Source: Eledone cirrhosa
Taxonomy: Eukaryota
Assembly: GCA_964016885.1 (NCBI GenBank)
Contig: OZ024754.1
Coordinates: 4,650,001 to 4,714,000, forward strand
Length of the DNA stretch: 64,000 bases
Direction of reading: 5' to 3'
The translations under genes and the position numbers were made by a program. Position 1 is the stretch's first letter; each line of letters opens with the position of its first letter. The notes under the pieces were generated by a model, which saw only the letters and a list, made by a program, of their open reading frames with translations, did no database searches and was not told where the DNA came from. Below, piece by piece: positions 12,858-63,358 of this stretch.

Positions 12858-12945
<88 letters not shown>

Positions 12946-12946
<1 letters not shown>

Positions 12947-13300
12947 CGGGTTGAATCGGAGGTAACCACAGTAAGTAAGGTACTCAATACATAGCAGAGT
13001 ATATATATTCAATTTGATATAGAAATGGCTTCCACGGGTCTAGAACTGTTTCATTCGAAGGAAATCATCAGGAAAGCCCTTCTACAGGGTAACATTGTGG
13101 GCGACAAAACAATACACACTATATTACTTTGCGTCGATGAGTTTGCAGAAGTAAGCTTCTACCTCCTGTATTTATGATTAAACCCTGAACCAAAGAAGAA
13201 CCCTCGCCCATACCGTGATCGTTCATTCTGCTATAAAAGATAATAAACCCTTTCCCAGATCGACACACGATCGTATTTATATAATGAACGACATATTTCA
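12946..13300 (-). mobile_element. Penelope-like element 3' end (family B): ORF remnant, hammerhead (13027-13078), tail
   Basis: Minus strand GGCTTTC-CTGATGA-TTTC CTTC GAAT-GAA-ACAG...CCGT-G-GAAGCC. The tail TATTGAGTACCTTACTTACTGTGGTTAC is shared with other copies; the upstream frame ends ...IINT...HRRKVI*. Confidence 0.7.
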
Positions 13301-14164: not shown

Positions 14165-14370
14165 CTATTTAATTACAAAGTGAACAACACAAAATATAAC
14201 TACTCCATTACCAAAGGTTTCTGGATCACAGACAATAATAATATACGTCTGGATCGTTCGTCAGACAGAGATGTTATAATTATGAGACGTATATTATTAT
14301 TGTCTGTGATCCAGAAATCTTTGGTAATGGAGTAGTTATATTTTGTGATGTTCACTTTCTAATTAAATAG
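14165..14370. mobile_element. Fold-back (86-bp arms) PLE-like end with a truncated hammerhead 5' core in the spacer
   Basis: Arms 14165-14250 and 14285-14370; TCGTCAG at 14258-14264 is CTGACGA on the minus strand. Confidence 0.6.
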
Positions 14371-14394
14371 AGTATATATATACATATATAAGTT

Positions 14395-14497
14395 TATCCC
14401 GGGGACAATCGGGGGTAACCACAGTAAGTAAGGTACTCAATACATAGCAGAGTATAAAATTTAATATAGAAAGGCTTCTACAGGACTAGAACTGTTA
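14395..14497 (-). mobile_element. Truncated PLE family B end
   Basis: GGGGTAACCACAGTAAGTAAGGTACTCAATACATAGCAGAGT...GGCTTCTACAGGACTAGAACTGTT. Confidence 0.75.
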
Positions 14498-15168: not shown

Positions 15169-15311
15169 TAATAATAGGGCTTTTCTTCATAGATATGTCG
15201 TAGTTGTGAGTTTGTATATGGGGGCTCGATCTCTGAGTGTGTGTGTAAGTGTGTACACACATATACATATATATATATACACACACACACACACTTACAG
15301 ATATATATATA

Positions 15312-15485
15312 TAGGAAAAGAGTTAGGACCCCGACGGCTGAGCTCCGACCGTTTCGAAGTCAGTTCGGATCTAGCCGCCGAAACGGCTTGAGCTCTGCCG
15401 TCGGGGCCTTGACTATTTTCCTATTACCCACTCTACTACCCTAAGTATCGAGTACTCTGGTCCGTTATGATCCACACTTTCTTTG

Positions 15486-15523
<38 letters not shown>

Positions 15524-15963
15524 CGAAGGAAATGTGGTAAGGAACCAGGTGGACCATAACGCACCAAATTACTCAATACTTAGGGTAGTAGAGTGAGTAA
15601 TATAGGAACAAGTATGAGCCCGACGGCAGAGCTCAAGCCGTCGAAACGGCTTGAGCTCTGCCGTCGGGCTCATACTTGTTCCTATATATATATATATATA
15701 TAACAAAGGAATTGTGGTAAGGAACCAGATGGACCATAACGCACCAGAGTACTCAATACTTAGGGTAGTAGAGTGGGAAATAGGAAAAAGTATGACCCCG
15801 ACGGCAGAGCTCAAGCCGTTTCGACGGCTATTTCTGGACTAAATTAGAATTTTTAGCCTGGTGAATAAAATAGCTATATATTCACCAGGCTAAAAATTCT
15901 AATTTAGTCCAAAAATAGCCGTCGAAACGGCTTGAGCTCTGCCGTCGGGGTCATATTTTTTCC

Positions 15964-15965
<2 letters not shown>
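15312..15965. mobile_element. Three palindromic PLE family A ends in (TA)n (15312-15489, 15522-15685, 15702-15965)
   Basis: Each has GAAACGGCTTGAGCTCTGCCGTCGGG (hammerhead 3' half) inverted against itself, plus the shared tail CACTCTACTACCCTAAGTAT.GAGT... Confidence 0.8.
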
Positions 15966-16017
<52 letters not shown>

Positions 16018-36170: not shown

Positions 36171-36217
36171 TATATACCAGGATAGAACCAGTTTTAAACT
36201 AGTTAGACTATTACTCA

Positions 36218-36374
36218 ACAGAGTACTCGATACTTGGGATAGCAGAGTGTGACTATATTGGAAAGAATCGAGGCCCGACGGCTGAGCTCTTGCCGTTTCA
36301 ACGGCTAGTTCCAGAATCTTACTAGCTGTTGTAACGGCAAGAGCTCAGTAGACGAACCCCGACTCTTTCTAATA
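36218..36374. mobile_element. Diverged palindromic PLE family A end
   Basis: CCCGACGGCTGAGCTCTTGCCGTTTCAACGGCTAG and its inverse. Confidence 0.7.
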
Positions 36375-40678: not shown

Positions 40679-40997
40679 GTGGGGGAACAGTATGGCCGAA
40701 TGTTTAAGAGGTTCACTTCGCAATCATTAGATCCGTATATTTTGGGCATCTTGTCATTGTGAGGGAAACTGGTTCAACAGAACCCGTTTGGAAGCCCTCA
40801 AATGGTGTGTGTCTGCAATTGAAAGGGTTAAACTTCGTCACAAAATGTATCATGCTGAATCTCTGAGAGTTATTTTATGGGTGCACATGTCTGTGGAATA
40901 CTCAGCCAATTGCATGCTAATTTCATGAACAGGTTGTTCTGTTGATCGAGCAACTGGAGCTTTCATCCTCGAAACCGACGGAAATCCATTTCTTGTA

Positions 40998-41924
40998 TAG
41001 CGTCGGTTGAAACGTTCATAGGATGATTATGAAGGAATGATGCTAGAGTTGTGTAATCTTGCATGCATTAATTTTAACTCGTATTAAAACCTACAATGTT
41101 TCTTTCCAGGAACTTTGTTAAAAAATAAACCTCATTTGGTCATTCCATGAGAGTATCTTGGCCATAGTCTGACTATGAAAAAGTGATGCTAGGGCTGTGA
41201 AATCTTGCATGCATTAATTTTAACTCGTATTAAAACCTACATTGTTTCTTTCCAGGAACTTTGTTAAAAAATAAACCTCATTTGGTCATTCCATGAGAGT
41301 ATCTTGGCCATAGTCTGACTATGAAAAAGTGATGCTAGGGCTGTGAAATCTTGCATGCATTAATTTTAACTCGTATTAAAACCTACATTGTTTCTTTCCA
41401 GGAACTTTGTTAAAAAATAAACCTCATTTGGTCATTCCATGAGAGTATCTTGGCCATAGTCTGACTATGAAAAAGTGATGCTAGGGCTGTGAAATCTTGC
41501 ATGCATTAATTTTAACTCGTATTAAAACCTACATTGTTTCTTTCCAGGAACTTTGTTAAAAAATAAACCTCATTTGGTCATTCCATGAGAGTATCTTGGC
41601 CATAGTCTGACTATGAAAAAGTGATGCTAGGGCTGTGAAATCTTGCATGCATTAATTTTAACTCGTATTAAAACCTACAATGTTTCTTTCCAGGAACTTT
41701 GTTAAAAAATAAACCTCATTTGGTCATTCCATGAGAGTATCTTGGCCATAGTCTGACTATGAAAAAGTGATGCTAGGGCTGTGAAATCTTGCATGCATTA
41801 ATTTCAACTCTTCTTATTAGTCCCTGGAAAGAAACAATGCAGTTATTATGTTAAAAAATAAACCTCATTTGGTCATTCCACGAGAAGATCTTGCTCAGCT
41901 TATAAACCTTTAAGCCAACCCTCG
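40998..41924 (+). mobile_element. Mariner-type MITE whose interior is amplified into a 146-bp tandem array (~6 units)
   Basis: TIR-like ends TA-TAGCGTCGGTTGAAA and GCCAACCCTCG-TA; GCATGCATTAATT recurs at 41061, 41207, 41353, 41499, 41645 and 41791. Confidence 0.8.
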
Positions 41925-42374
41925 TATATGTACGAGTGTTTGAGTAGTCTGCTTATAAACGGTTTAACCTGTAGCTCTACACATATATATGTTAACCACG
42001 TGTGTATATTACTGTGATAGCTGCCAGTTTTTTTGATTTATAATGTGTTTGGGGTGTGTTTATTTTATATTTTCTGAAATTTTTCAAGCCACTTATCTTC
42101 ACTAATTGATATATTTCCCTTTTAAAGTGGTGGACGGCGAGAGCCACTCTTTTAAGGAGAAAGCAAATAATTGCTATTATTTTACTCTGTTATTTTCACT
42201 GTTTGCAGACATTAGACTGCGGCCATACTGGGGCACCGGTCTGATAAGTTTTGCTAGATCATAATGATCCCAGTACAAATCTTTTTATCAAGTTTTGTAC
42301 TTATCGATTTTATTTTGTCAACCGCTAGGTTACATGCTATAAAAGACACACATGTAAACACACACAGACATATC

Positions 42375-42378
<4 letters not shown>

Positions 42379-42469
<91 letters not shown>

Positions 42470-42578
42470 CTCTATATATATATATATCTCTATATATATA
42501 TATATCTATATATATATATATATCTATATATATATATATATCTATATATATATATATATATCTCTATATATATATATA

Positions 42579-42639
<61 letters not shown>

Positions 42640-42864
42640 ATATATATATATATATCTATATATATATATATATATATATATATCTATATATATATCTATA
42701 TATATATCTATATATATATATATATCTATATATATATCTATATATCTATATATATCTATATATATATATATATCTATATATATATATATATATATATATA
42801 TCTATATATATCTATATATATATATATATCTATATATATATATATATCTATATATATATATATA

Positions 42865-42927
<63 letters not shown>

Positions 42928-43324
42928 ATATATATATCTATATATATATCTATATATCTATATATATATATATATCTATATATATATATATATATATCTA
43001 TATATATATATATATCTATATATATATATATATATATCTATATATATATATATATATATATCTATATATATATATCTAGATAAATCTACCAAGAGTTTAC
43101 GGTAGTGTCCAATCCGTATGAAGAACCTATATATATCTATATATATATATATCTATATATATATCTATATATATATATATCTATATATATATCTATATAT
43201 ATATATATCTATATATATATATATCTATATATATATATATCTATATCTATATCTATATATATATCTATATATATCTATATCTATATATATATCTATATAT
43301 ATCTATATCTATATATATATATAT
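42379..43324. repeat. (CT)n then (TA)n/TCTA tract
   Basis: Direct inspection. Confidence 0.95.
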
Positions 43325-43561
43325 AGTTAAATATTAGACAGGAACAAAAATCAGAAAGGCAGTACAAATGGTAGTTTATTAGGTTCACGCTTTTGTGAGG
43401 GGGGGGGGGGGGTATATATATATAGTGTGTGTACACGAGGTTTGTTCTAAAAGTATGTCTATTCTTTTATTCCTGTAACCCTTTCAACCAATATTCTTGT
43501 TCGTATATTGTTATATTGACTCTTAGAAAACAATGAAATCTCGAAAAGTGAAATATGTGTG

Positions 43562-43608
<47 letters not shown>

Positions 43609-44522
43609 TGTGTATCAATATGTATGTGTATAAATGTTTGTATATGTATGTATATAGATATGTATGTATATAGATATGTATGTATATAGATATGTGTGTG
43701 TGTGTGTGTGTGTGTGCATATATATATGTCGGTATTATGTATGTATATATATATATTTGTGTGTGTGTGTGTGTGTGTTTAAAACTGCATAAAGAGAAGA
43801 AGATAAATAGAGATGTGGATGAAAAACGCAGAGAGAGAAATTAAATATAAATATAAAAATAATAAATAATAAATAATTCTATAAAAAATTGGAGAAAACC
43901 CCGTGAGGAGCAGACAACCCAAGATTTCAGTGTCCTGATAAATACAATGTGATTATCATCTCGTCCAATGTGACCTTTCCTTAAAGAAGAAGAAGGAGCA
44001 GATTTACCAATGTTAGGTTCATTGATGTAAAAATATGGATTCAGAGAAGGAAGGAGTACTGATGATGCTAGTCTATTGACCTCATAAAGGAACTCTCTGT
44101 TGTTCGTTTAAATCAATGTATTTGGTGTATAGATGCGTTTCTTGTGGTTGTTGTTATTGTTGTTATTGTTGTTTTTAGCTCCATAGTAGACATTAAAAAG
44201 CATTTCCAACATGCAAACATTATAGAAATTTATTTTCCATATAATAAAGACCCTTGACCAAGGGTTTTGTACCTAAAATATTCCCCTCCAAGGTACAAGC
44301 CCAAGCAAAGTATATATATGTACTTATATATATGTATATATATGTGTATGTATACATATATATAAGTATATATATATATGTATGTATACTTATATATGAA
44401 TGTATATTTATGTATATATAAGTATATATATATGTATGTATACTTATATATGAATGTATATTTATGTATATATATATATATATATATAAATAAATATATA
44501 CAATGATATTAAATAAATGGAA

Positions 44523-44569
<47 letters not shown>

Positions 44570-44697
44570 AGTACAGCATTGACGAAGCTTTAGAATACGG
44601 CCAAGCTAGCGTATATGTATAATCGGTCTGTAGCTTGAGCACTCAGATGAGGAAAGACCCCTGAGTAATAACATTACGTTCAAACAGCTTAGCAAAT

Positions 44698-44733
44698 CCC
44701 TCTTTGGATTTTAGTCTTCAAATTTATTATTAT

Positions 44734-44783
<50 letters not shown>

Positions 44784-44956
44784 ATAATAATAAATTTGAA
44801 GACTAAAATCCAAAGAGGGCTCGATAAGGATAAATATATATCAAATATATAAGAACCATAGATTTATTAAAATAACAGATTAAAGTTTAAGCAAAGAATC
44901 GCTGCCCGTTAAGAGTGAAAGCAACGATTCTTTGCTTAAACTTTAATCTGTTATTT
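44698..44956. repeat. Two near-perfect inverted repeats (44698-44819 centred on (TA)n; 44870-44956)
   Basis: CCCTCTTTGGATTTTAGTCTTC... / ...GAAGACTAAAATCCAAAGAGGG; AAATAACAGATTAAAGTTTAAGCAAAGAATCG and its inverse. Confidence 0.9.
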
Positions 44957-44966
44957 ATATATATAT

Positions 44967-45162
44967 AAATGGCTTCTACAGAACTAGAACCGTTTCATTC
45001 GTGAGAAATCATCAGGAAGCCGGCATGATTTCTAACGAATGATTTCTAACGAATGAAACAATTCTAGTTCTGCAGAAGCCATTTCTATATTAGATATTTA
45101 TACTCTGCTACGTATTGAGTACCTTACTTATTGTGGTTACCCCCGATTGAACCCGGGATAAA
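44967..45162. mobile_element. Fold-back PLE family B end
   Basis: Hammerhead region present in both orientations, plus family tail GTATTGAGTACCTTACTTATTGTGGTTACCCCCG. Confidence 0.8.
44971..45021 (-). ncRNA. Type I hammerhead motif (family B)
   Basis: GGCUUC-CUGAUGA-UUUC UCAC GAAU-GAA-ACGG UUCUAGUU CUGU-A-GAAGCC. Confidence 0.75.
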
Positions 45163-45180
45163 CATATATATATATATATA

Positions 45181-45451
45181 TAGGAAAAGGTATGACCACG
45201 ACGGCAGAGCTCAGAAATAGCCGTCGAAACGGCTTGAGCTCTGCCGTCGGGGTCATACCTTTTCCTATTACCCACTCTACTACCCTAAGTACTCAATACT
45301 TAGGGTAGTAGAGTGGGTAATAGGAACGAGTAGGACCCCGACGGCTGAGCTCAAGCCGTTTCGACGGCTAATTCTGGACTAAAATGTCCAGAATTAGTCC
45401 AGAATTAGCCGTCGAAACGGCTTGAGCTCAGCCGTCGGGGTCCTACTCGTT

Positions 45452-45455
<4 letters not shown>
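45181..45455. mobile_element. Multiply inverted PLE family A ends
   Basis: Four copies of the stem III/GUC half in alternating orientation. Confidence 0.8.
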
Positions 45456-45498
<43 letters not shown>

Positions 45499-46004
45499 GT
45501 ATGTATGTATGTATGTATAAATATATATTATAAGTATTTACGTATATATATATGTGAGAGAGAGCATGGGCAGTAGAGAGAGAGGGGAGGGGTTGGGGGG
45601 GGGCTAGCTGTGTGAAGACAACGGGTATATCAGGAGTACGATCTAAAGTGACAAATATGTAGATATAGAGGAGAAAAAACAAAGACATATTTCGTAGGGA
45701 AGCATAGATATAAGGGTCCGTTCTGAGGGTAAATATAGCTGTAAGTAGGTTGTGAGGGGGGGTAGATGTGGAGTGTGAGTGAGGGCTGCGGGTGAGGAGA
45801 AGTGGGCAAGTAAAGGAGTGCTGTGAGGGGATGGACTTGAATATATATATGTATATATATTCATATATACATACATATGTATATATGTATATATACACAT
45901 ATATATGTGTGTATAGATAGATTGATAGTAGATATATGTATATGTATATGGGAGTGTGTATATATACATATATGTATATGCATGTGTATATATGTGTTTG
46001 TGTG

Positions 46005-46063
<59 letters not shown>

Positions 46064-46071
46064 TATGAATA

Positions 46072-46120
<49 letters not shown>

Positions 46121-46140
46121 ATGTGTGTCTATAGATATAT

Positions 46141-46191
<51 letters not shown>

Positions 46192-46231
46192 GAATATCTG
46201 TATATATGTGTATATGATACATATATATACA

Positions 46232-46271
<40 letters not shown>

Positions 46272-46344
46272 AAAATATGCAGCAGACAGGCGGGAAAAAG
46301 TGTATTGAGGTCAAGTAATCTTTATGACTGAAGTGATATATCAT

Positions 46345-46820
46345 ACACCCCCACCACCACTACATAGCATCACCTCCACCTTATAGACACCATCACCATG
46401 TAGCCACCACACCACCACCACCATATAACCACACCACCACCACCATATAACCACACCACCACCACCATATAACCACACCACCATATAACCACACCACCGC
46501 CATATAACCACACCACCACCATCATCATAGACACCACACCACCACCACCATATAACCACACCACCACCACCATATAACCACACCACCACCACCACCACCA
46601 CAGACACCACACCACCACATAGCCATCACCACCACCTTATAGACACCATCACGATGTAGTCACCACACCACCACCACCACCACCATCATAGACACCACAC
46701 CACCACCACCACCACAATATAACCACACCACCACCACAATATAACCACACCACCACCACCACCACCACCACCACCATATAACCACACCACCACCATCATA
46801 GACACCACCGCCACCACTCT
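46345..46820. repeat. ACC-based repeat (CACCACCATATAAC units)
   Basis: Direct inspection. Confidence 0.9.
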
Positions 46821-47168
46821 ATATATAACATATTTCCATTCATATCTGTGGTTGACTTAACTCCCACCACTACCTCATCCACCTAACCGCCCCCCCCCCT
46901 CTCTATTTCACACCAGTTCTGCTCCTCTCTCAATATCCATTCGCCACATCCACCTCACCCCCTCCACCTCACCCCCTCTACCTCACCCCTCCACCTCACC
47001 CCCTCCACCTCACCACCTCACCGCCTCCACCTCACCACCTCCACCCCTCCACTATCATCATTTACACTTTTTAAAGACCAAATATCTACTCCTTTACCTC
47101 TCTCTCTCTCTCTCTCTCTCTCTGTAAGTATGTATGTATATATATATATATATATTTAAAATAGAAAT

Positions 47169-47219
47169 GGCTTCCACAGGTCTAGCACTGTTTCATTCGG
47201 GAGAAATCATCATGAAGCC
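47169..47219 (-). mobile_element. PLE family B fragment, hammerhead with mutated core (AUGAUGA, GUG)
   Basis: Aligns to 44971-45021. Confidence 0.7.
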
Positions 47220-47293
47220 TATGTATTATATATATAGAGAGAGAGGCGGGTGAGATGGCTGGATATATATATCTCTTTCTATCCATCTCATCC

Positions 47294-47333
<40 letters not shown>

Positions 47334-48075
47334 ATCCTCTCTCACTCTATATCTTTCTTTCTTTCTTTCTTCATCCTCTCTCACTCTATATCTTTCTCTT
47401 CTATCTATCTATCTCTCTCTCTCTCTCCATGTTTCTGTCTTTCTCTGTCTCCCCCCCCCCCACACTCTCTCATACTATGTTCCCCCTCTCTCACACACTG
47501 TCCCACCCTCTCTCCCTCTCTCTTCCCAACTCTCCAACCCTATACCCCTCTCCTGTCCTCTCTCCCACTCCCTATATTTTTCTCCGTCTTTCTCTCATCC
47601 TAACACTCCCCTCCCCCACTGTATTCCCTCCCTCTTCTCCAGCCAACTTATGTTCCTTTATATATGATTATATGCCATGTCTTTAGCCATATTTACCCCT
47701 AATTGCAGCCCTTCCTCCTCGTCCTACCTTCCCCCCTCCTCGTCCTACCTTCCCCCCTCCTCATCCTACCTTCCTCCCCCTCATCTTCCTCCCTTCCACC
47801 TCCTCCTCCCTTCCACCTCCTCCTCTTCTTCCCTTTCGATTTTTCCCAACTCGTTGCGTATCATATTTCTGTCCCCCCCCCTCTTCTACTCTCTCTCTCT
47901 ATCCCCCTCTCTCTCTCTATCTCTCTCTCCCTCTCTCTCTCTATCTCTCTCTCCCTCTCTCTCTAGTTTTCCTTAACCTAGATACAAACCTACCCTGCTA
48001 AAAATATATATATATATATACACATGTGTATATATATATATATACACATATACTCATGTGTATATATATATAAAT

Positions 48076-48125
<50 letters not shown>

Positions 48126-48416
48126 ATATATATAGTGGCCACAGTCCAACCAATGAAACCAATAGAAGGATATGAGAATATTTAATATGCCTACCTGTAA
48201 GTCTGTAGTATAAGTACACACACACACATACGCAAGCAGATATACACACACACGTACACACACACACACACACACACACACATAGTGTAGGGTGTGGTAT
48301 ATTTTATTATAGCAGTAAAACTGTGATAGTGACTCGAGGATCAGAAATTTAGGGCTTAAGTAGTCCCTTTTCATACAAGTATCACTTAGAAATACCCTTA
48401 TACACGAAGATCTATG

Positions 48417-48486
<70 letters not shown>

Positions 48487-48548
48487 TACACACACACACA
48501 TATATATATATATAGATATATATATATATATATATAGGAAAAAGTTTA

Positions 48549-48644
48549 ACCCCGGCGGCAGAGCTCAAGCCGTTACGACGGCTATTTCTGGACTAAATTA
48601 GAATTTTTAGTCTGGTAAATAAATAGCCGAACTTTTCAAGGGGT
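48549..48644 (-). ncRNA. Type I hammerhead with U3-A8 core variant (this copy has two further core mutations)
   Basis: ACCCC-UUGAAAA-GUUCGGCUAUUU...AAAUAGCCGUC-G(U)A-ACGGC UUGAGCUCU GCCG(C)-C-GGGGU; sister copies supply GAAAC and GUC. Confidence 0.75.
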
Positions 48645-49259
48645 AATTCCTTATATGGGAAGATTAAAATTATAGTTGTCAAAAGGATTGGTCAAAATTT
48701 CTTGTAAACAACACAATTAAATCTTTCATGGTGGGGGTGGGGTGACTGAACTTTCCTGTAGAACAATGAAGGAGTGGGTGGAGCCGGTCAAGCGTTGAAA
48801 GTGAATTATATACACCAAATTCTAAGGAGTGTGTATGAAATTAGGCTACTTAGAAAGCAGGCGAAGAAGGATACTGAGAGTAGGACGTTATAGAAATGAT
48901 TAATAAATGCGATTAAAAGATAATTTTAAAAAATTAATAATAAAATTAAATAGTAAAGATAATTTTTAAAATCTCTAGAGTCTAAAGCAGTTGCTACATG
49001 TTTAACTGGTATTCCGTTTTCAGCCAATGCTATATATAATTTACTGGTGTGGGGGTACTGAGGCTACAGAAGCCCGATGGGCTGCCTTGGGGTAGGGGAA
49101 AGAGGGAAAAGGAAGAGGAGAGAGAATGGAAGGAAGTGATAAGAAGAGATAAAGGGAAGAAGAAAAGAAAAAGAAAAAGAAGTACATCTACCTATGTATG
49201 CTGGGGTTTCCCCTGTCTTGTTCGGCAAGTGGGGAAAAGAAGGATGTTGCAGCCATTGT

Positions 49260-49379
49260 CTACACACTCGGGTCATGGGGGGGGGGGGGGGGGTAAGTCC
49301 TACGAAATCGGTGTTTACATGCAGTTAAAAGTTCGTCTTTTTTGTTTAGGAGTTGGTCCTTCGTAAACAGCATTTGTAA
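49260..49379 (-). pseudogene. C-terminal remnant of a Penelope-like RT/GIY-YIG ORF
   Basis: LQMLFTKDQLLNKKDELLTACKHRFRRTY resembles the LLNKRSEL..kCRH terminus of aquatic-invertebrate PLE endonucleases (recalled, not searched). Confidence 0.6.
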
Positions 49380-49560
49380 TGTGTGGTAAGGAACCAGGTG
49401 GACCATAACGTACCAGAGTACTCGATACTTTGGGTAGTAGAGTGGGTAATAGGAAAAGAGTCAGAACCCCGACGGCAGAGCTCAAGCCGTTTCGACAGCT
49501 ATTTCAGTCCAGGAGTAGCTGTCGAAACGGCTCGAGCTCTGCCGTCGGGGTTCTGACTCT

Positions 49561-49679
<119 letters not shown>

Positions 49680-49719
49680 AGTGTATACATATATATAGTA
49701 CATATATGTGTATATACTG

Positions 49720-50167: not shown

Positions 50168-51058
50168 GGTGGTAGTGGTTGTGGTGGTGGTGGTGGTGGT
50201 GGTGGTGGTGGTGGTGGTGGTGGTTGTGGTGGTGGTGGTTGTGGTGGTTGTGGTGGTGGTGGTGGTGGTGGTTGTGGTGGTGGTGGTTGTGGTGGTGGTG
50301 GTGGTTGTGGTTGTGGTGGTGGTGGTGGTGGTGGTGGTGGTTGTGGTGGTGGTGGTGGTGGTGGTGGTGGTGGTTGTGGTGGTGGTGGTTGTGGTGGTGG
50401 TGGTGGTGGTGGTTGTGGTTGTGGTGGTGGTGGTTGTGGTGGTGGTGGTTGTGGTGGTGGTGGTTGTGGTGGTGGTGGTGGTTGTGGTTGTGGTGGTGGT
50501 TGTGGTGGTGGTGGTGGTGGTGGTTGTGGTTGTGGTGGTGGTGGTGGTGGTTGTGGTGGTGGTGGTTGTGGTGGTTGTGGTGGTTGTGGTGGTGGTGGTG
50601 GTTGTGGTGGTGGTGGTGGTGGTGGTTGTGGTGGTGGTGGTTGTGGTGGTGGTTGTGGTGGTGGTGGTGGTTGACGTCTCAGCAGTAGTAGTAGTAGCAG
50701 CTGCAGTAATAGTAGTAGTAGTAGTAGTACTAGTACTAGTAGTAGTGGCAGCAGCATCACTAGTAGTAGTAGTAGTGGCAGCAGCATCGCTAGTAGTAGT
50801 AGCAGTAGTCGTAGCAACATCATCAGTTGTAGTAGTAGTAGTAGTAGTAGTAGCAGCATCAGTAATAGTAGTCGTTGTAGTAGCAGCATTAGTAGTAGCA
50901 GTAGTCGTAGCAGCAGTGGTAGTTCCACAACAGTAGTAGTAGTAGTGGTAGTAGTGGTATAACACTAACAGTAGTAGTAGTGGTGGTAGTGGTGGTGGTA
51001 GTAGAATACCAGCAGTGGTAGTGGTAGTAGTCATAGTAGTAGTAGTAGTAGTAGTAGT
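50168..51058. repeat. (GGT/TGT)n then (AGT/AGC)n microsatellites
   Basis: Direct inspection. Confidence 0.95.
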
Positions 51059-52001
51059 AGTATAACACCAACAGTAGTACCAGTAGTGGTGGTAGGAGTA
51101 GTAGTATAACACCAACAGTAGTACCAGTAGTGGTGGTGGTAGTAGTAGTAGTATAACACCAACAGTAGTACCAGTAGTGGTGGTAGTAGTAGTAGTATAA
51201 CACCAACAGTAGTACCAGTAGTGGTAGTAGCAGTAGTATAACACCAACAGTAGTACCAGTAGTGGTAGTAGTAGTAGTAGTATAACACCAACAGTAGTAC
51301 CAGTAGTGGTGGTGGTAGTAGTAGTATAACACCAACAGTAGTACCAGTAGTGGTGGTAGTAGTAGTAGTAGTATAACACCAACAGTAGTACCAGTAGTGG
51401 TGGTGGTAGTAGTAGTATAACACCAACAGTAGTACCAGTGGTGGTAGTAGTAGTAGTAGTATAACACCAACAGTAGTACCAGTAGTGGTGGTGGTAGTAG
51501 TAGTATAACACCAACAGTAGTACCAGTAGTGGTGGTGGTAGTAGTAGTATAACACCAACAGTAGTACCAGTAGTGGTGGTGGTAGTAGTAGTATACACCA
51601 ACAGTAGTACCAGTAGTGGTGGTGGTAGTAGTAGTATAACACCAACAGTAGTACCAGTAGTGGTGGTAGTAGTAGTAGTATAACACCAACAGTAGTACCA
51701 GTAGTGGTGGTGGTAGTAGTAGTATAACACCAACAGTAGTACCAGTAGTGGTGGTGGTAGTAGTAGTATAACACCAACAGTAGTACCAGTAGTGGTGGTG
51801 GTAGTAGTAGTATAACACCAACAGTAGTACCAGTAGTGGTGGTGGTAGTAGTAGTATAACACCAACAGTAGTACCAGTAGTGGTGGTAGTAGTAGTATAA
51901 CACCAACAGTAGTACCAGTAGTGGTGGTGGTAGCAGTAGTATAACACCAACAGTAGTACCAGTAGTGGTGGTGGTAGTAGTATAACACCAACAGTAGTAC
52001 C

Positions 52002-52032
<31 letters not shown>

Positions 52033-52051
52033 TAACACCAACAGTAGTACC

Positions 52052-52082
<31 letters not shown>

Positions 52083-52232
52083 TACACCAACAGTAGTACC
52101 AGTAGTGGTGGTGGTAGTAGTAGTATAACACCAACAGTAGTACCAGTAGTGGTGGTAGTAGTAGTAGTAGTATAACACCAACAGTAGTACCAGTAGTGGT
52201 GGTAGTAGTAGTATAACACCAACAGTAGTACC

Positions 52233-52263
<31 letters not shown>

Positions 52264-52696
52264 TAACACCAACAGTAGTACCAGTAGTGGTGGTAGTAGT
52301 AGTAGTATAACACCAACAGTAGTACCAGTAGTGGTGGTAGTAGTAGTAGTAGTATAACACCAACAGTAGTACCAGTGGTGGTGGTGGTAGTAGTAGTATA
52401 ACACCAACAGTAGTACCAGTGGTGGTGGTAGTAGTAGTAGTAGTATAACACCAACAGTAGTACCAGTAGTGGTAGTAGTAGTAGTAGTAGTATAACACCA
52501 ACAGTAGTACCAGTGGTGGTGGTAGTAGTAGTAGTAGTATAACACCAACAGTAGTACCAGTAGTGGTGGTGGTAGTAGTAGTAGTATAACACCAACAGTA
52601 GTACCAGAAGTGGTGGTGGTAGTAGTAGTATAACACCAACAGTAGTACCAGTGGTGGTGGTAGTAGTAGTAGTAGTATAACACCAACAGTAGTACC

Positions 52697-52727
<31 letters not shown>

Positions 52728-53154
52728 TAACACCAACAGTAGTACCAGTGGTGGTGGTGGTAGTAGTAGTATAACACCAACAGTAGTACCAGTGGTGGTG
52801 GTGGTAGTAGTATAACACCAACAGTAGTACCAGTAGTGGTGGTGGTAGTAGTAGTATAACACCAACAGTAGTACCAGTAGTGGTGGTGGTAGTAGTAGTA
52901 GTATAACACCAACAGTAGTACCAGTAGTGGTGGTGGTAGTAGTAGTAGTATAACACCAACAGTAGTACCAGTAGTGGTGGTGGTAGTAGTAGTAGTATAA
53001 CACCAACAGTAGTACCAGTAGTGGTGGTGGTAGTAGTAGTAGTATAACACCAACAGTAGTACCAGTAGTGGTGGTGGTAGTAGTAGTATAACACCAACAG
53101 TAGTACCAGTGGTGGTGGTAGTAGTAGTAGTAGTATAACACCAACAGTAGTACC

Positions 53155-53185
<31 letters not shown>

Positions 53186-53741
53186 TAACACCAACAGTAG
53201 TACCAGTGGTGGTGGTGGTAGTAGTAGTATAACACCAACAGTAGTACCAGTGGTGGTGGTGGTAGTAGTATAACACCAACAGTAGTACCAGTAGTGGTGG
53301 TGGTAGTAGTAGTATAACACCAACAGTAGTACCAGTAGTGGTGGTGGTAGTAGTAGTATAACACCAACAGTAGTACCAGTAGTGGTGGTGGTAGTAGTAG
53401 TAGTATAACACCAACAGTAGTACCAGTAGTGGTGGTGGTAGTAGTAGTAGTATAACACCAACAGTAGTACCAGTAGTGGTGGTGGTAGTAGTAGTATAAC
53501 ACCAACAGTAGTACCAGTAGTGGTGGTGGTAGTAGTAGTATAACACCAACAGTAGTACCAGTAGTGGTGGTGGTAGTAGTAGTATAACACCAACAGTAGT
53601 ACCAGTAGTGGTGGTGGTAGTAGTAGTAGTATAACACCAACAGTAGTACCAGTAGTGGTGGTGGTAGTAGTAGTAGTATAACACCAACAGTAGTACCAGT
53701 AGTGGTGGTGGTAGCAGTAGTATAACACCAACAGTAGTACC

Positions 53742-53772
<31 letters not shown>

Positions 53773-53882
53773 TAACACCAACAGTAGTACCAGTAGTGGT
53801 GGTGGTAGTAGTAGTAGTATAACACCAACAGTAGTACCAGTAGTGGTGGTAGTAGTAGTAGTATAACACCAACAGTAGTGCC

Positions 53883-53913
<31 letters not shown>

Positions 53914-54023
53914 TAACACCAACAGTAGTACCAGTAGTGGTGGTGGTAGCAGTAGTATAACACCAACAGTAGTACCAGTAGTAGTGGTGGTAGTAGTAGT
54001 AGTATAACACCAACAGTAGTACC

Positions 54024-54054
<31 letters not shown>

Positions 54055-54719
54055 TAACACCAACAGTAGTACCAGTAGTGGTGGTGGTAGTAGTAGTAGT
54101 ATAACACCAACAGTAGTACCAGTAGTGGTGGTGGTAGTAGTAGTAGTATAACACCAACAGTAGTACCAGTAGTGGTGGTGGTAGTAGTAGTAGTATAACA
54201 CCAACAGTAGTACCAGTAGTGGTGGTGGTAGTAGTAGTAGTATAACACCAACAGTAGTACCAGTAGTGGTGGTGGTAGTAGTAGTAGTATAACACCAACA
54301 GTAGTACCAGTAGTGGTGGTGGTAGTAGTAGTATAACACCAACAGTAGTACCAGTAGTGGTGGTGGTAGTAGTAGTAGTATAACACCAACAGTAGTACCA
54401 GTAGTGGTGGTAGTAGTAGTAGTAGTATAACACCAACAGTAGTACCAGTAGTAGTAGTAGTAGTAGTAGTATAACACCAACAGTAGTACCAGTAGTGGTG
54501 GTGGTAGTAGTAGTAGTATAACACCAACAGTAGTACCAGTAGTGGTGGTGGTAGTAGTAGTATAACACCAACAGTAGTACCAGTAGTGGTGGTAGTAGTA
54601 GTAGTATAACACCAACAGTAGTACCAGTAGTGGTGGTGGTAGTAGTAGTAGTATAACACCAACAGTAGTACCAGTGGTGGTGGTGGTAGTAGTAGTAGTA
54701 TAACACCAACAGTAGTACC

Positions 54720-54750
<31 letters not shown>

Positions 54751-55412
54751 TAACACCAACAGTAGTACCAGTAGTGGTGGTGGTAGTAGTAGTAGTATAA
54801 CACCAACAGTAGTACCAGTAGTGGTGGTGGTAGTAGTAGTAGTATAACACCAACAGTAGTACCAGTAGTGGTGGTGGTAGTAGTAGTAGTATAACACCAA
54901 CAGTAGTACCAGTAGTGGTGGTGGTAGTAGTAGTAGTATAACACCAACAGTAGTACCAGTGGTGGTGGTGGTAGTAGTAGTAGTATAACACCAACAGTAG
55001 TACCAGTGGTGGTAGTAGTAGTAGTAGTAGTATAACACCAACAGTAGTACCAGTAGTGGTGGTGGTAGTAGTAGTATAACACCAACAGTAGTACCAGTAG
55101 TGGTGGTGGTAGTAGTAGTAGTATAACACCAACAGTAGTACCAGTAGTAGTGGTGGTGGTAGTAGTAGTATAACACCAACAGTAGTACCAGTAGTGGTGG
55201 TGGTAGTAGTAGTATAACACCAACAGTAGTACCAGTAGTGGTGGTGGTAGTAGTAGTATAACACCAACAGTAGTACCAGTAGTGGTGGTGGTAGTAGTAG
55301 TATAACACCAACAGTAGTACCAGTAGTGGTGGTGGTAGTAGTAGTATAACACCAACAGTAGTACCAGTAGTAGTGGTGGTGGTAGTAGTAGTATAACACC
55401 AACAGTAGTACC

Positions 55413-55443
<31 letters not shown>

Positions 55444-55509
55444 TAACACCAACAGTAGTACCAGTAGTGGTGGTGGTAGTAGTAGTAGTATAACACCAAC
55501 AGTAGTACC

Positions 55510-55540
<31 letters not shown>

Positions 55541-56089
55541 TAACACCAACAGTAGTACCAGTAGTGGTGGTGGTAGTAGTAGTAGTATAACACCAACAGT
55601 AGTACCAGTAGTGGTGGTGGTAGTAGTAGTAGTATAACACCAACAGTAGTACCAGTAGTGGTGGTAGTAGTAGTAGTATAACACCAACAGTAGTACCAGT
55701 AGTGGTGGTGGTAGTAGTAGTATAACACCAACAGTAGTACCAGTAGTGGTGGTGGTAGTAGTAGTAGTATAACACCAACAGTAGTACCAGTAGTGGTGGT
55801 AGTAGTAGTAGTAGTATAACACCAACAGTAGTACCAGTAGTAGTAGTAGTAGTAGTAGTATAACACCAACAGTAGTACCAGTAGTGGTGGTGGTAGTAGT
55901 AGTATAACACCAACAGTAGTACCAGTAGTGGTGGTGGTAGTAGTAGTAGTATAACACCAACAGTAGTACCAGTAGTGGTGGTGGTAGTAGTAGTATAACA
56001 CCAACAGTAGTACCAGTAGTGGTGGTGGTAGTAGTAGTAGTATAACACCAACAGTAGTACCAGTAGTGGTGGTGGTAGTAGTAGTAGTA
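51059..56089. repeat. 5-kb compound minisatellite ATAACACCAACAGTAGTACC(AGT)a(GGT)b(AGT)c
   Basis: More than 100 units of mostly 41-50 bp; this explains the 1657-1985-aa ORFs. Confidence 0.97.
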
Positions 56090-56252
56090 TTTGAGGATGT
56101 CTCTGATATTAACCACTTCTAATTATCTTTTAAACAACTAAATCTTTATTTTTCAATCAATCATTCTTCTGTAATTTATTTTATATTTTAATTTTATATT
56201 TTTCTTATTTTTTTTATGTTATTTATGTAATAATTATCGCCTGTTATCATTC

Positions 56253-56870
56253 AAACCATCAGCAACAAACCATCAGCAACAAACCATCAGCAGCAACAAA
56301 CCATCAGCAGCAAACCATCACCAGAAAACCATCACCAACAACAAACTATCAACAACATCAAACATCAGCAACAAATTATCACCAGCAACAAACCATCACC
56401 AGCAAACCATCACCACCAGCAAACCATCACCAGCAGCAAACCATCAACAGCAACCATCAACAGCAACAAGCTATCAGCAACAGCAAACATCAGCAACAAA
56501 TTATCACCAGCAACAAACCATCACCAGCAAACCATCACCACCAGCAAACCATCACCAGCAGCAAACCATCAACAGCAACCATCACCAACAACAAACTATC
56601 AACAACAGCAAACATCAGCAACAAATTATCACCAGCAACAAACCATCACCACCAGCAAACCATCACCAGCAGCAAACCATCAACAGCAACCATCACCAAC
56701 AGCAAACATCAGCAACAAATTATCACCAGCAACAAACCATCACCACCAGCAAACCATCACCAGCAGCAAACCATCAACAGCAACAAGCTATCAGCAACAA
56801 ACCATCATCAGAAAACCATCACCAGCAACAAACCGACAGCAACAAACCACCACCAGCAAACCATCAACAC
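56253..56870. repeat. AAACCATCACCAGC-type repeat with higher-order duplication
   Basis: Direct inspection. Confidence 0.9.
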
Positions 56871-56940
56871 TTTAAACTATATATATAATATTATTCAAAA
56901 TATTAATAAATGAGAAATATTATCATAACCAAAGTATATA

Positions 56941-56999
56941 TTGTATTATACATATTTCAAAGGTACATTGGTGTTTCAGTATGTTTTCATCAGATAAAA
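56941..56999 (-). ncRNA. Type I hammerhead motif (downstream member of tandem pair)
   Basis: UUUUAU-CUGAUGA-AAA...UUU-GAA-AUAUGUAU-A-AUACAA; core intact, stems imperfect. Confidence 0.65.
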
Positions 57000-57101
57000 T
57001 ATATGAGAGATTGGATATGCGGTATACCACTAAGGTTCTTGAATCTTCAATTCCTGTAGTAGCATTAATAAATGGAAAATATCTTTATAATACCATATTT
57101 A

Positions 57102-62939: not shown

Positions 62940-63140
62940 ATTTTATTTTATAGAAGGAGCTTCTACAGGACTAGTACTGTTTCATTCAGATGAAATCTTC
63001 AGGAAGCTCTGAAGATTTCATCTGAATGAAACAGTACTAGTCCTGTAGAAGCTCCTTCTATAAAATAAAATAAAAATTTACTCTGCCATGTATTGAGTAC
63101 CTTACTTACTGTGGTTATCCCCGACTCAACCCGGGTCCTA
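62940..63140. mobile_element. Fold-back PLE family B end (perfect ~63-bp arms)
   Basis: 62940-63002 is the inverse of 63009-63071; the family tail follows. Confidence 0.85.
62957..63009 (-). ncRNA. Type I hammerhead motif (family B)
   Basis: GAGCUUC-CUGAAGA-UUUC AUCU GAAU-GAA-ACAG UACUAGUC CUGU-A-GAAGCUC. Confidence 0.8.
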
Positions 63141-63358
63141 CGTATATATATATATATATATGTGTGTGTATGCCAGTGAGTGGGAGTAGGTACACAGACT
63201 GTATGAGTGCGTGAGAGAGAGAGAGAGGGAGAGAGACTCACAGAGTAGGAGAACCGAGACAGACAGACAGACATAGATAGGTAAAGAGACATACAGACGA
63301 GCTGTCAGCCAAACAGATCGAATGACATAGATAGACCGAAATAGAAAAGCGGGAACCC

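Follow-up and report, generated by a model that had tools for sequence, protein, structure and literature searches.

Hammerhead motifs near the 3' end and (TA)n targets are known from the Hydra clade of Penelope-like elements (PLEs), and the passages covered of Craig et al. (2021, PMC8557442) call the role of hammerheads in PLEs unclear. Passages of Cervera & De la Peña (2014, PMC4209133) describe minimal U3-A8 hammerheads in the Schistosoma Cercyon PLEs (approximately 1,300 matches, with a search descriptor of their own). Natural U3-A8 hammerheads are stated to be active in vitro in the part covered of Perreault et al. (2011, PMC3088659), and two internal reverse transcriptase (RT) start sites were shown for the anole Poseidon element PAc in that of Frangieh et al. 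(2024, PMC11167929). The literature searched also included passages of PMC6765202, PMC3884650, PMC7229834 and the preprint 10.64898/2026.07.22.740005; Repbase/Dfam, subscription papers and the supplements of PMC4209133 and PMC11167929 lay outside it. Within this scope, no earlier account was found of the Eledone family described below, of C3·A8 amplified as a core state or of cut-site insertions. The U3-A8 core, which an earlier sequence-only reading of this DNA had headlined, was already published for hammerheads in PLEs in 2014 (PMC4209133, the part covered). Judging from the genomic copies compared here, what goes beyond the known, in a Hydra-clade family that is itself new, is the set of putative cut-site insertions and a lineage that passes through each of the four Y3·R8 states.

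The window, i.e. the whole 64-kb stretch of DNA analysed here, carries the following features.

48549..48644, minus strand: type I hammerhead motif with a U3-A8 core, from folding and comparison with sister copies
48644-48640 / 48553-48549, minus strand: stem I of the window copy, ACCCC / GGGGU
48633..48639, minus strand: 5' core UUGAAAA of the window copy (U3 U4 G5 A6 A7 A8 A9)
48577..48632, minus strand: long stem II, made up of the pair G10.1-C11.1, a bulge, a 9-bp helix, an internal loop and an inner helix of 7 bp
48555..48573, minus strand: stem III with palindromic GAGCUC loop, 5 bp in intact copies
48553..48554, minus strand: predicted scissile bond C17/G1.1 (C17 = 48554), the start point of short insertions elsewhere in the genome
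48534..48553, minus strand: 3' end of the insertion (tail-less), adjoining (TA)n
48645..49260, minus strand: 3' UTR / pseudo-LTR of a retroelement (49382-48534 aligns unbroken with loci L035 and L043, 82-83%)
49260..49382, minus strand: C-terminal remnant of a GIY-YIG endonuclease (...LQMLFTKDQLLNKKDELLTACKHR...), from alignment, with 5' truncation at 49382
49383..49505, minus strand: upstream partial-tandem pseudo-LTR (pLTR) with the hammerhead 3' half and most of the 85-nt tail
49499..49568, plus strand: inverted, 5'-truncated arm with half a hammerhead, stopping at (TA)n
15305..15972, no strand assigned: half-hammerhead insertions, three inverted pairs
45174..45462, no strand assigned: half-hammerhead insertions, inverted
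36197..36346, minus strand: half-hammerhead copy, older and diverged

According to the modelled fold, the motif is a type I hammerhead, in which three helices surround the core and the ends lie in stem I. The minus-strand helices and the U3-A8 core proposed in the sequence-only reading were all recovered at the positions given there. Specifically, stem II is closed by G10.1 (48632) and C11.1 (48577), continues as CGGCUAUUU/AAAUAGCCG and then as the inner helix GACUAAA/UUUAGUC, and the loop of stem III reads UU-GAGCUC-U. The core of the family is complete (U4 G5 A6 N7 - A9, G12 A13 A14, A15.1-U16.1, NUH and G10.1-C11.1), whereas that of the window copy is not: it reads GUAA and GCC where intact sister copies read GAAA and GUC, as had been noticed before, and thus differs at two essential positions (A13U and U16.1C). 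Because both mutations hit established core requirements, the window copy is probably inactive, a truncated relic. Its fold has a z-score of -2.26, equalled by 2 of 200 shuffles. In an Rfam scan of the window, the best 150 of 640 rows were microsatellite or hairpin noise below threshold, and an intact copy (L063 6980-7135) gave no hammerhead match to Rfam at E<=10.

Conservation of the fold was examined in 22 hand-picked copies spanning the subfamilies. The named structure had 92% of its cells paired, against 28-49% in slid controls, and U4, G5, A6, A9 and G10.1 were invariant, while N7 was A, C, G or U depending on the subfamily. Three stem II pairs were changed on both sides; as the copies are related, these double-sided changes represent few events. 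The GAGCUC palindrome of loop III was constant with variable flanking bases, and a loop-III dimer was predicted at -27 to -31 kcal/mol versus -6.5 to -7 per hairpin. Stems II and III were also recovered by RNAalifold, which mis-paired stem I with the core. Among eight copies folded, the hammerhead was near the minimum-energy fold in five, and in the other three, from some subfamilies, an alternative was 4-10 kcal/mol lower. A chance fold of palindromic repeats would fit the modest z-score (only -2.3) and the missing Rfam match, but all core positions lie in register, stem II shows double-sided changes and the motif is placed where PLE hammerheads sit, so this explanation is contradicted and we regard it as extremely improbable. 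For the most diverged subfamily (loop AA-GAGCUC), no whole core was found in the genome search; with stem II AACUAGCUGU, it was seen as half copies only, at L143, L147 and window 36197-36346.

The sequence-only reading had treated the motif as part of a repeat family and missed its parent, a Penelope-like retrotransposon. Approximately 850 nt upstream of the window motif align unbroken with other copies and reach the C-terminal codons of an endonuclease. Searches with coding pieces and longer stretches retrieved near-full-length units with a hammerhead at both ends (L061, L062, L063 and L065), arranged as hammerhead, 85-nt tail, 5' UTR, ORF of ~710 codons, 3' UTR and hammerhead, with a unit size of 3,096-3,098 nt in L063 and L062. 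As aligned here, this ~3.1-kb Hydra-clade PLE carries the motif in its 3' pseudo-LTR. The single ORF, broken in all four full-length copies, encodes an RT followed by a C-terminal GIY-YIG domain, and the YRDD and VIY..YIG motifs could be read in L062-L065. The Pfam GIY-YIG match was weak and below the cut-off (E=0.025), and nothing significant was found against Pfam and PDB sequences; 1,133 homologues were found at E<=1e-20, many of them 680-740 aa long. The RWK-like motif and DKT are present (KRLRWRT and HSDKTGN), as are the CxCX5C linker CNCPDRSTC and a CxxC/CxH arrangement around E and N (CNLC..E...N...CKH), and CCHH is absent. Additionally, insertion into (TA)n, partial tandems of the pLTR, inverted copies and a one-ended tail were all seen in the family, and insertions end either 19 nt (tail-less) or ~104 nt (tailed) downstream of the cut site.

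From these diagnostic motifs and a by-eye comparison with published Hydra proteins, the element is assigned to the Hydra clade. The canonical C3-G8 hammerhead of Hydra pLTRs is mostly replaced by U3-A8, and the placement does not rest on it. A first placement in Neptune was dropped on the Hydra diagnostics; of the features of Neptune, Nematis and Naiad, the CCHH in the endonuclease (EN), the CX2-5CxxC linker, DKG/DKA and the N-terminal EN of Naiad were not found. Other elements lie at the loci retrieved. L065 8070-9911 (minus strand) holds a 614-aa open frame with an RT plus a GIY-YIG at the C-terminus, from a different Penelope-like family. An RT fragment just before L064 is presumably of the Neptune type, and we take the open frames at L071 583-2337 (plus strand), L066 3-1289 (minus strand) and L072 2885-3940 (plus strand) to resemble an LTR-retrotransposon pol, a Helitron-like protein and a LINE RT, respectively.

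The window contains 13 stem-III modules in ~7 clusters, and, as observed earlier, a single one has the 5' core. In 60 evenly spaced 10-kb stretches of the 3.0-Gb, microsatellite-rich genome, 13 modules were found per 600 kb, one with a whole core. Scaled up, this gives ~65,000 3' half-motifs (Poisson 35,000-111,000; the true range is wider because copies are clumped). The very high copy number previously deduced from ~8 loci is thus upheld as high, but the window is ~9-fold richer in modules than the genome sample and most genomic copies are half-motifs lacking the catalytic 5' core. Exact patterns retrieved at least 7,602 whole cores genome-wide, and reversed-pattern controls retrieved none. 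Most copies, often inverted, have lost their 5' part, with the truncation 30-47 nt upstream of C17, within stem II, and strand-switch joints lie in the same zone in contigs from public runs. Among 62 inverted pairs, 48 combined a tail end with a (TA)n end, 5 had two like ends and 9 were incompletely classed. The mostly short, non-coding copies and the palindromic loop III recall a non-autonomous retrozyme or satellite with tandem hammerheads, unrelated to a coding element. However, the motif is continuous with the RT-EN ORF in full-length copies and in the window, and the copies are dispersed and 5'-truncated; the short, non-coding, head-to-tail monomers of a non-LTR retrozyme were not found, and the full-length units contradict this candidate, which is therefore very unlikely.

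Several further observations concern the surroundings of these copies. Window 40685-49684 is repeated ~24.3 kb downstream (L333, G000:C14:4714001-4724000) with 92-99% identity; the duplicate carries an identical hammerhead copy and reflects either a tandem segmental duplication or an assembly artefact. Abundant short repeats in inverted pairs around (TA)n (window 44600-45100, 12920-13074, 14373-14496, 47145-47219 and 62942-63160) resemble the 3' ends of further Penelope-like families. A near-perfect 75-bp inverted repeat at window 14179-14356 gave a spurious miRNA-family match, and a large minisatellite array with a ~44-nt period occupies window 50840-57000. At L063 3861-4047, 187 nt around the hammerhead match a contig of a second organism's run, X5, with 2 differences, reflecting a relative or contamination.

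Positions 3 and 8 of the 7,602 exact-pattern cores were U-A in 5,729, C·A in 1,780, U·G in 76 and C-G in 17, counting pyrimidine-3 and purine-8 states only. U3-A8 is thus the commonest core, and it was also present in 24/24 copies chosen by ORF or at random with the core ignored, in line with the family consensus proposed earlier. A Watson-Crick 3/8 pair occurs in 5,746/7,602 copies, and C3·A8 makes up 23% of whole cores. The C·A state is a real in-register substitution, with which 40/40 further copies agree. The sequence-only reading had described U3-A8 as compensatory and proposed a genome-wide check of 3/8 covariation; this check found no covariation (C-G 17 versus 22 expected if the positions are independent; Fisher p = 0.27), and, with C3·A8 so frequent, the term compensatory is not borne out. 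A genome search for CTGANGA gave 161 matches, mostly chance flanks of truncated copies, and a separate canonical family was not found.

The order of the core states was read from an EN gene tree (40 of 156 copies long enough, midpoint root, 12/37 branches well supported) and a motif-region tree that included the core columns, both ladder-shaped. With CAGCUAGAU/AUCUAGCUG as its stem II, the oldest group is largely U-A and carries a side branch with G8; the first 100 of its 219 matches listed comprised 4 C-G, 8 U·G, 2 C·A and otherwise U-A. Next on the ladder is a small U·G group (30/40), after which come U-A groups, then C3 copies forming a grade along the backbone, and finally the youngest U-A groups. 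The same order is seen in the divergence from the column majority, which was 7% in the oldest group, 3.5-4.7% in C·A copies and 1.6-1.9% in the youngest groups. As read from these trees and counts, C·A was a genuine step in the lineage and was amplified. C-G is likely the ancestral 3/8 state, because published Hydra hammerheads are all C3-G8.

Short insertions provided evidence on cleavage. Copies that carry a tail and have (TA)n <=30 nt upstream of GGGGU were searched, and the matches listed fell at 37 separate sites within the first 126.5 Mb of contig C1, all of which were examined. Among these, 20/37 insertions started at G1.1, 4 at -1, 2 at -2 and 11 at -9 to -27, and none of the 37 at -3 to -8; starts at -1/-2 are ambiguous, and L316 was rescored by eye from 0 to -15 as a C17 deletion. 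G1.1 starts accounted for 17/24 inverted pairs (p = 7e-15) and 3/13 direct copies (p = 0.008) among the matches listed, the p-values being relative to starts spread evenly across the visible range. Because the pattern demands GGGG and <=30 nt upstream, very short copies are enriched and forward arms beginning downstream of G1.1 are invisible. Moreover, the inverted arm, which is not fixed by the pattern, ended at the cut site in 11/24 of the listed pairs and within 2 nt of it in 5 more. In 13 of the listed cases the base preceding G1.1 was T; A occurred there in 4 and G in 3. Scaled up, an estimated ~470 or more cut-site insertions exist genome-wide. From their starts, these insertions are likely a genomic record of in vivo cleavage. 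Cut-site starts are rare, with 2-3 in 140 tail-bearing copies at the loci examined and 0/4 full-length copies, indicating that most transposition used uncut or re-ligated RNA.

The core type of the truncated RNAs could be traced through the tail. A single base of the tail tells U3-A8 (14/14) from C3 (17/17) in whole copies that have the CCTACTCG signature and whose tail is complete. Among the matches listed, all 6 cut-site insertions with this signature and a complete tail had the C3-type tail, and a seventh carried a signature that is C3 in 10/12 whole copies. The cut-site starts among the matches listed comprised 7/12 of the C3 type versus 11/17 of the U3-A8 type (p = 1). This equality suggests either that C3·A8 RNAs are cut, through a wobble-tolerant core or in trans, with a U-A partner acting via a loop-III dimer, or that the stop is core-independent, and the choice between these two is the main uncertainty.

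RTs pause at G-runs. The motif might accordingly be a hammerhead by descent that no longer cuts, its stems serving as an RT- or protein-binding or dimerisation structure and the cut-site insertions reflecting RT stalling past GGGG at the base of stem III. The amplification of 1,780 copies with the C3·A8 mismatch, the independence of positions 3 and 8, the equal start fraction across core types and the second truncation zone within stem II all agree with this explanation, and passages of PMC11167929 report that cleavage is dispensable in vitro in the related anole element. However, the stop is precise to one base and leaves out C17, an unpaired base that ought to be copied if RT stalled at stem III, the untemplated T/A suggest that RT ran off a physical end, and the catalytic bases stay fixed among subfamilies with up to ~30% difference in their EN genes. 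We therefore consider a non-cutting structure unlikely, though not negligibly so, and hammerhead cleavage rather probable.

Under the favoured reading, in which the hammerhead sits in the 3' pseudo-LTR of the PLE, intact members quite probably cut their RNA in vivo, slowly or partially, on the 3' side of GUC. RT would start at either of two internal sites downstream of the ribozyme, which predicts inverted pairs with one tail and one TA end and fits the 48/62 observed. On uncut or re-ligated RNA, RT would read through the motif, giving most copies; on cut RNA, it would run off at G1.1 and add untemplated bases, giving ~100-nt mini-insertions that begin with GGGGU. The 3·8 contact would tolerate any pyrimidine·purine pair (C-G, U-A, U·G and C·A), either because wobble forms suffice with protein help or because the palindromic loop III lets the catalytic half of one RNA cut the substrate half of another. 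Several findings speak against this mechanism: the truncation hot zone 30-47 nt upstream of the cut, which indicates that structure-linked stops occur without cleavage; the equal start frequency of C3 and U3-A8 copies, as a core-independent stall predicts; the rarity of cut-site starts among tail-bearing copies and their absence from the four full-length ones; the lower-energy alternative folds of some subfamilies; and the dispensable cleavage and missing cut-site RNA ends of the anole element. A more far-reaching version, to which we give about an even chance, is that the ~470 or more insertions were templated by the 3' cleavage product and form a fossil record of in vivo cleavage, that cleavage persisted through C-G, U·G, U-A and C·A, and that it also affected the C·A stage (1,780 copies), through a wobble-tolerant core or in trans via loop-III dimers.

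Insertion starts at the scissile bond offer a purely genomic read-out of cleavage that could be applied to any PLE family. Moreover, the four Y3·R8 states all occur in a single lineage, one of them a mismatch that should be crippling for catalysis, which makes core tolerance and trans (dimer) cleavage testable. If trans cleavage is true, the substrate-only half copies, which number in the tens of thousands, might serve as trans-cleavage sites once transcribed.

Compared with the Hydra PLEs described in the covered passages of PMC8557442, the Eledone element shares the single ORF, the RWK-like RWR, DKT, CxCX5C, the C-terminal GIY-YIG without CCHH and the CxxC/CxH, as well as (TA)n, the 3'-end hammerhead, partial tandems, inverted copies and the one-ended tail. 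In contrast, 26/26 rows of the hammerhead table in the same source are CTGANGA (C3-G8), whereas the Eledone family is U3-A8 or C3·A8. The published Hydra hammerheads have short stem II loops and a loop III of 1-3 nt, whereas the Eledone family has a stem II of ~56 nt and a loop III of 9 nt, and its tail is ~85 nt versus 30-40 nt. Hydra-1_Obim, the sole cephalopod family in the part covered, has a hammerhead sequence unrelated to that of the Eledone family.

The closest resemblance of the core is to Cercyon, which, in the passages covered of PMC4209133, likewise has U3-A8 in the pseudo-LTR, a long helix II with unpaired base(s) at its 5' end, a palindromic helix III/loop 3, and single and inverted truncated copies. 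Unlike in Cercyon, helix III of the Eledone family is 5 bp, making activity as a monomer plausible, and those passages offer neither in vivo evidence nor an amplified C3·A8 state. The part covered of Perreault et al. (PMC3088659) describes the same core swap as covarying pairs, whereas the Eledone positions change separately in one lineage. As in PAc (passages of PMC11167929), the tail appears to be bounded by two RT start sites, targets are AT-rich and the hammerhead lies upstream of the start sites. In the passages covered, the hammerhead of PAc has a C3-G8 pair, requires protein and can be dispensed with in vitro, and it has no RNA reads ending at the cut site; unlike in PAc, genomic insertions of the Eledone family begin at the cut site.
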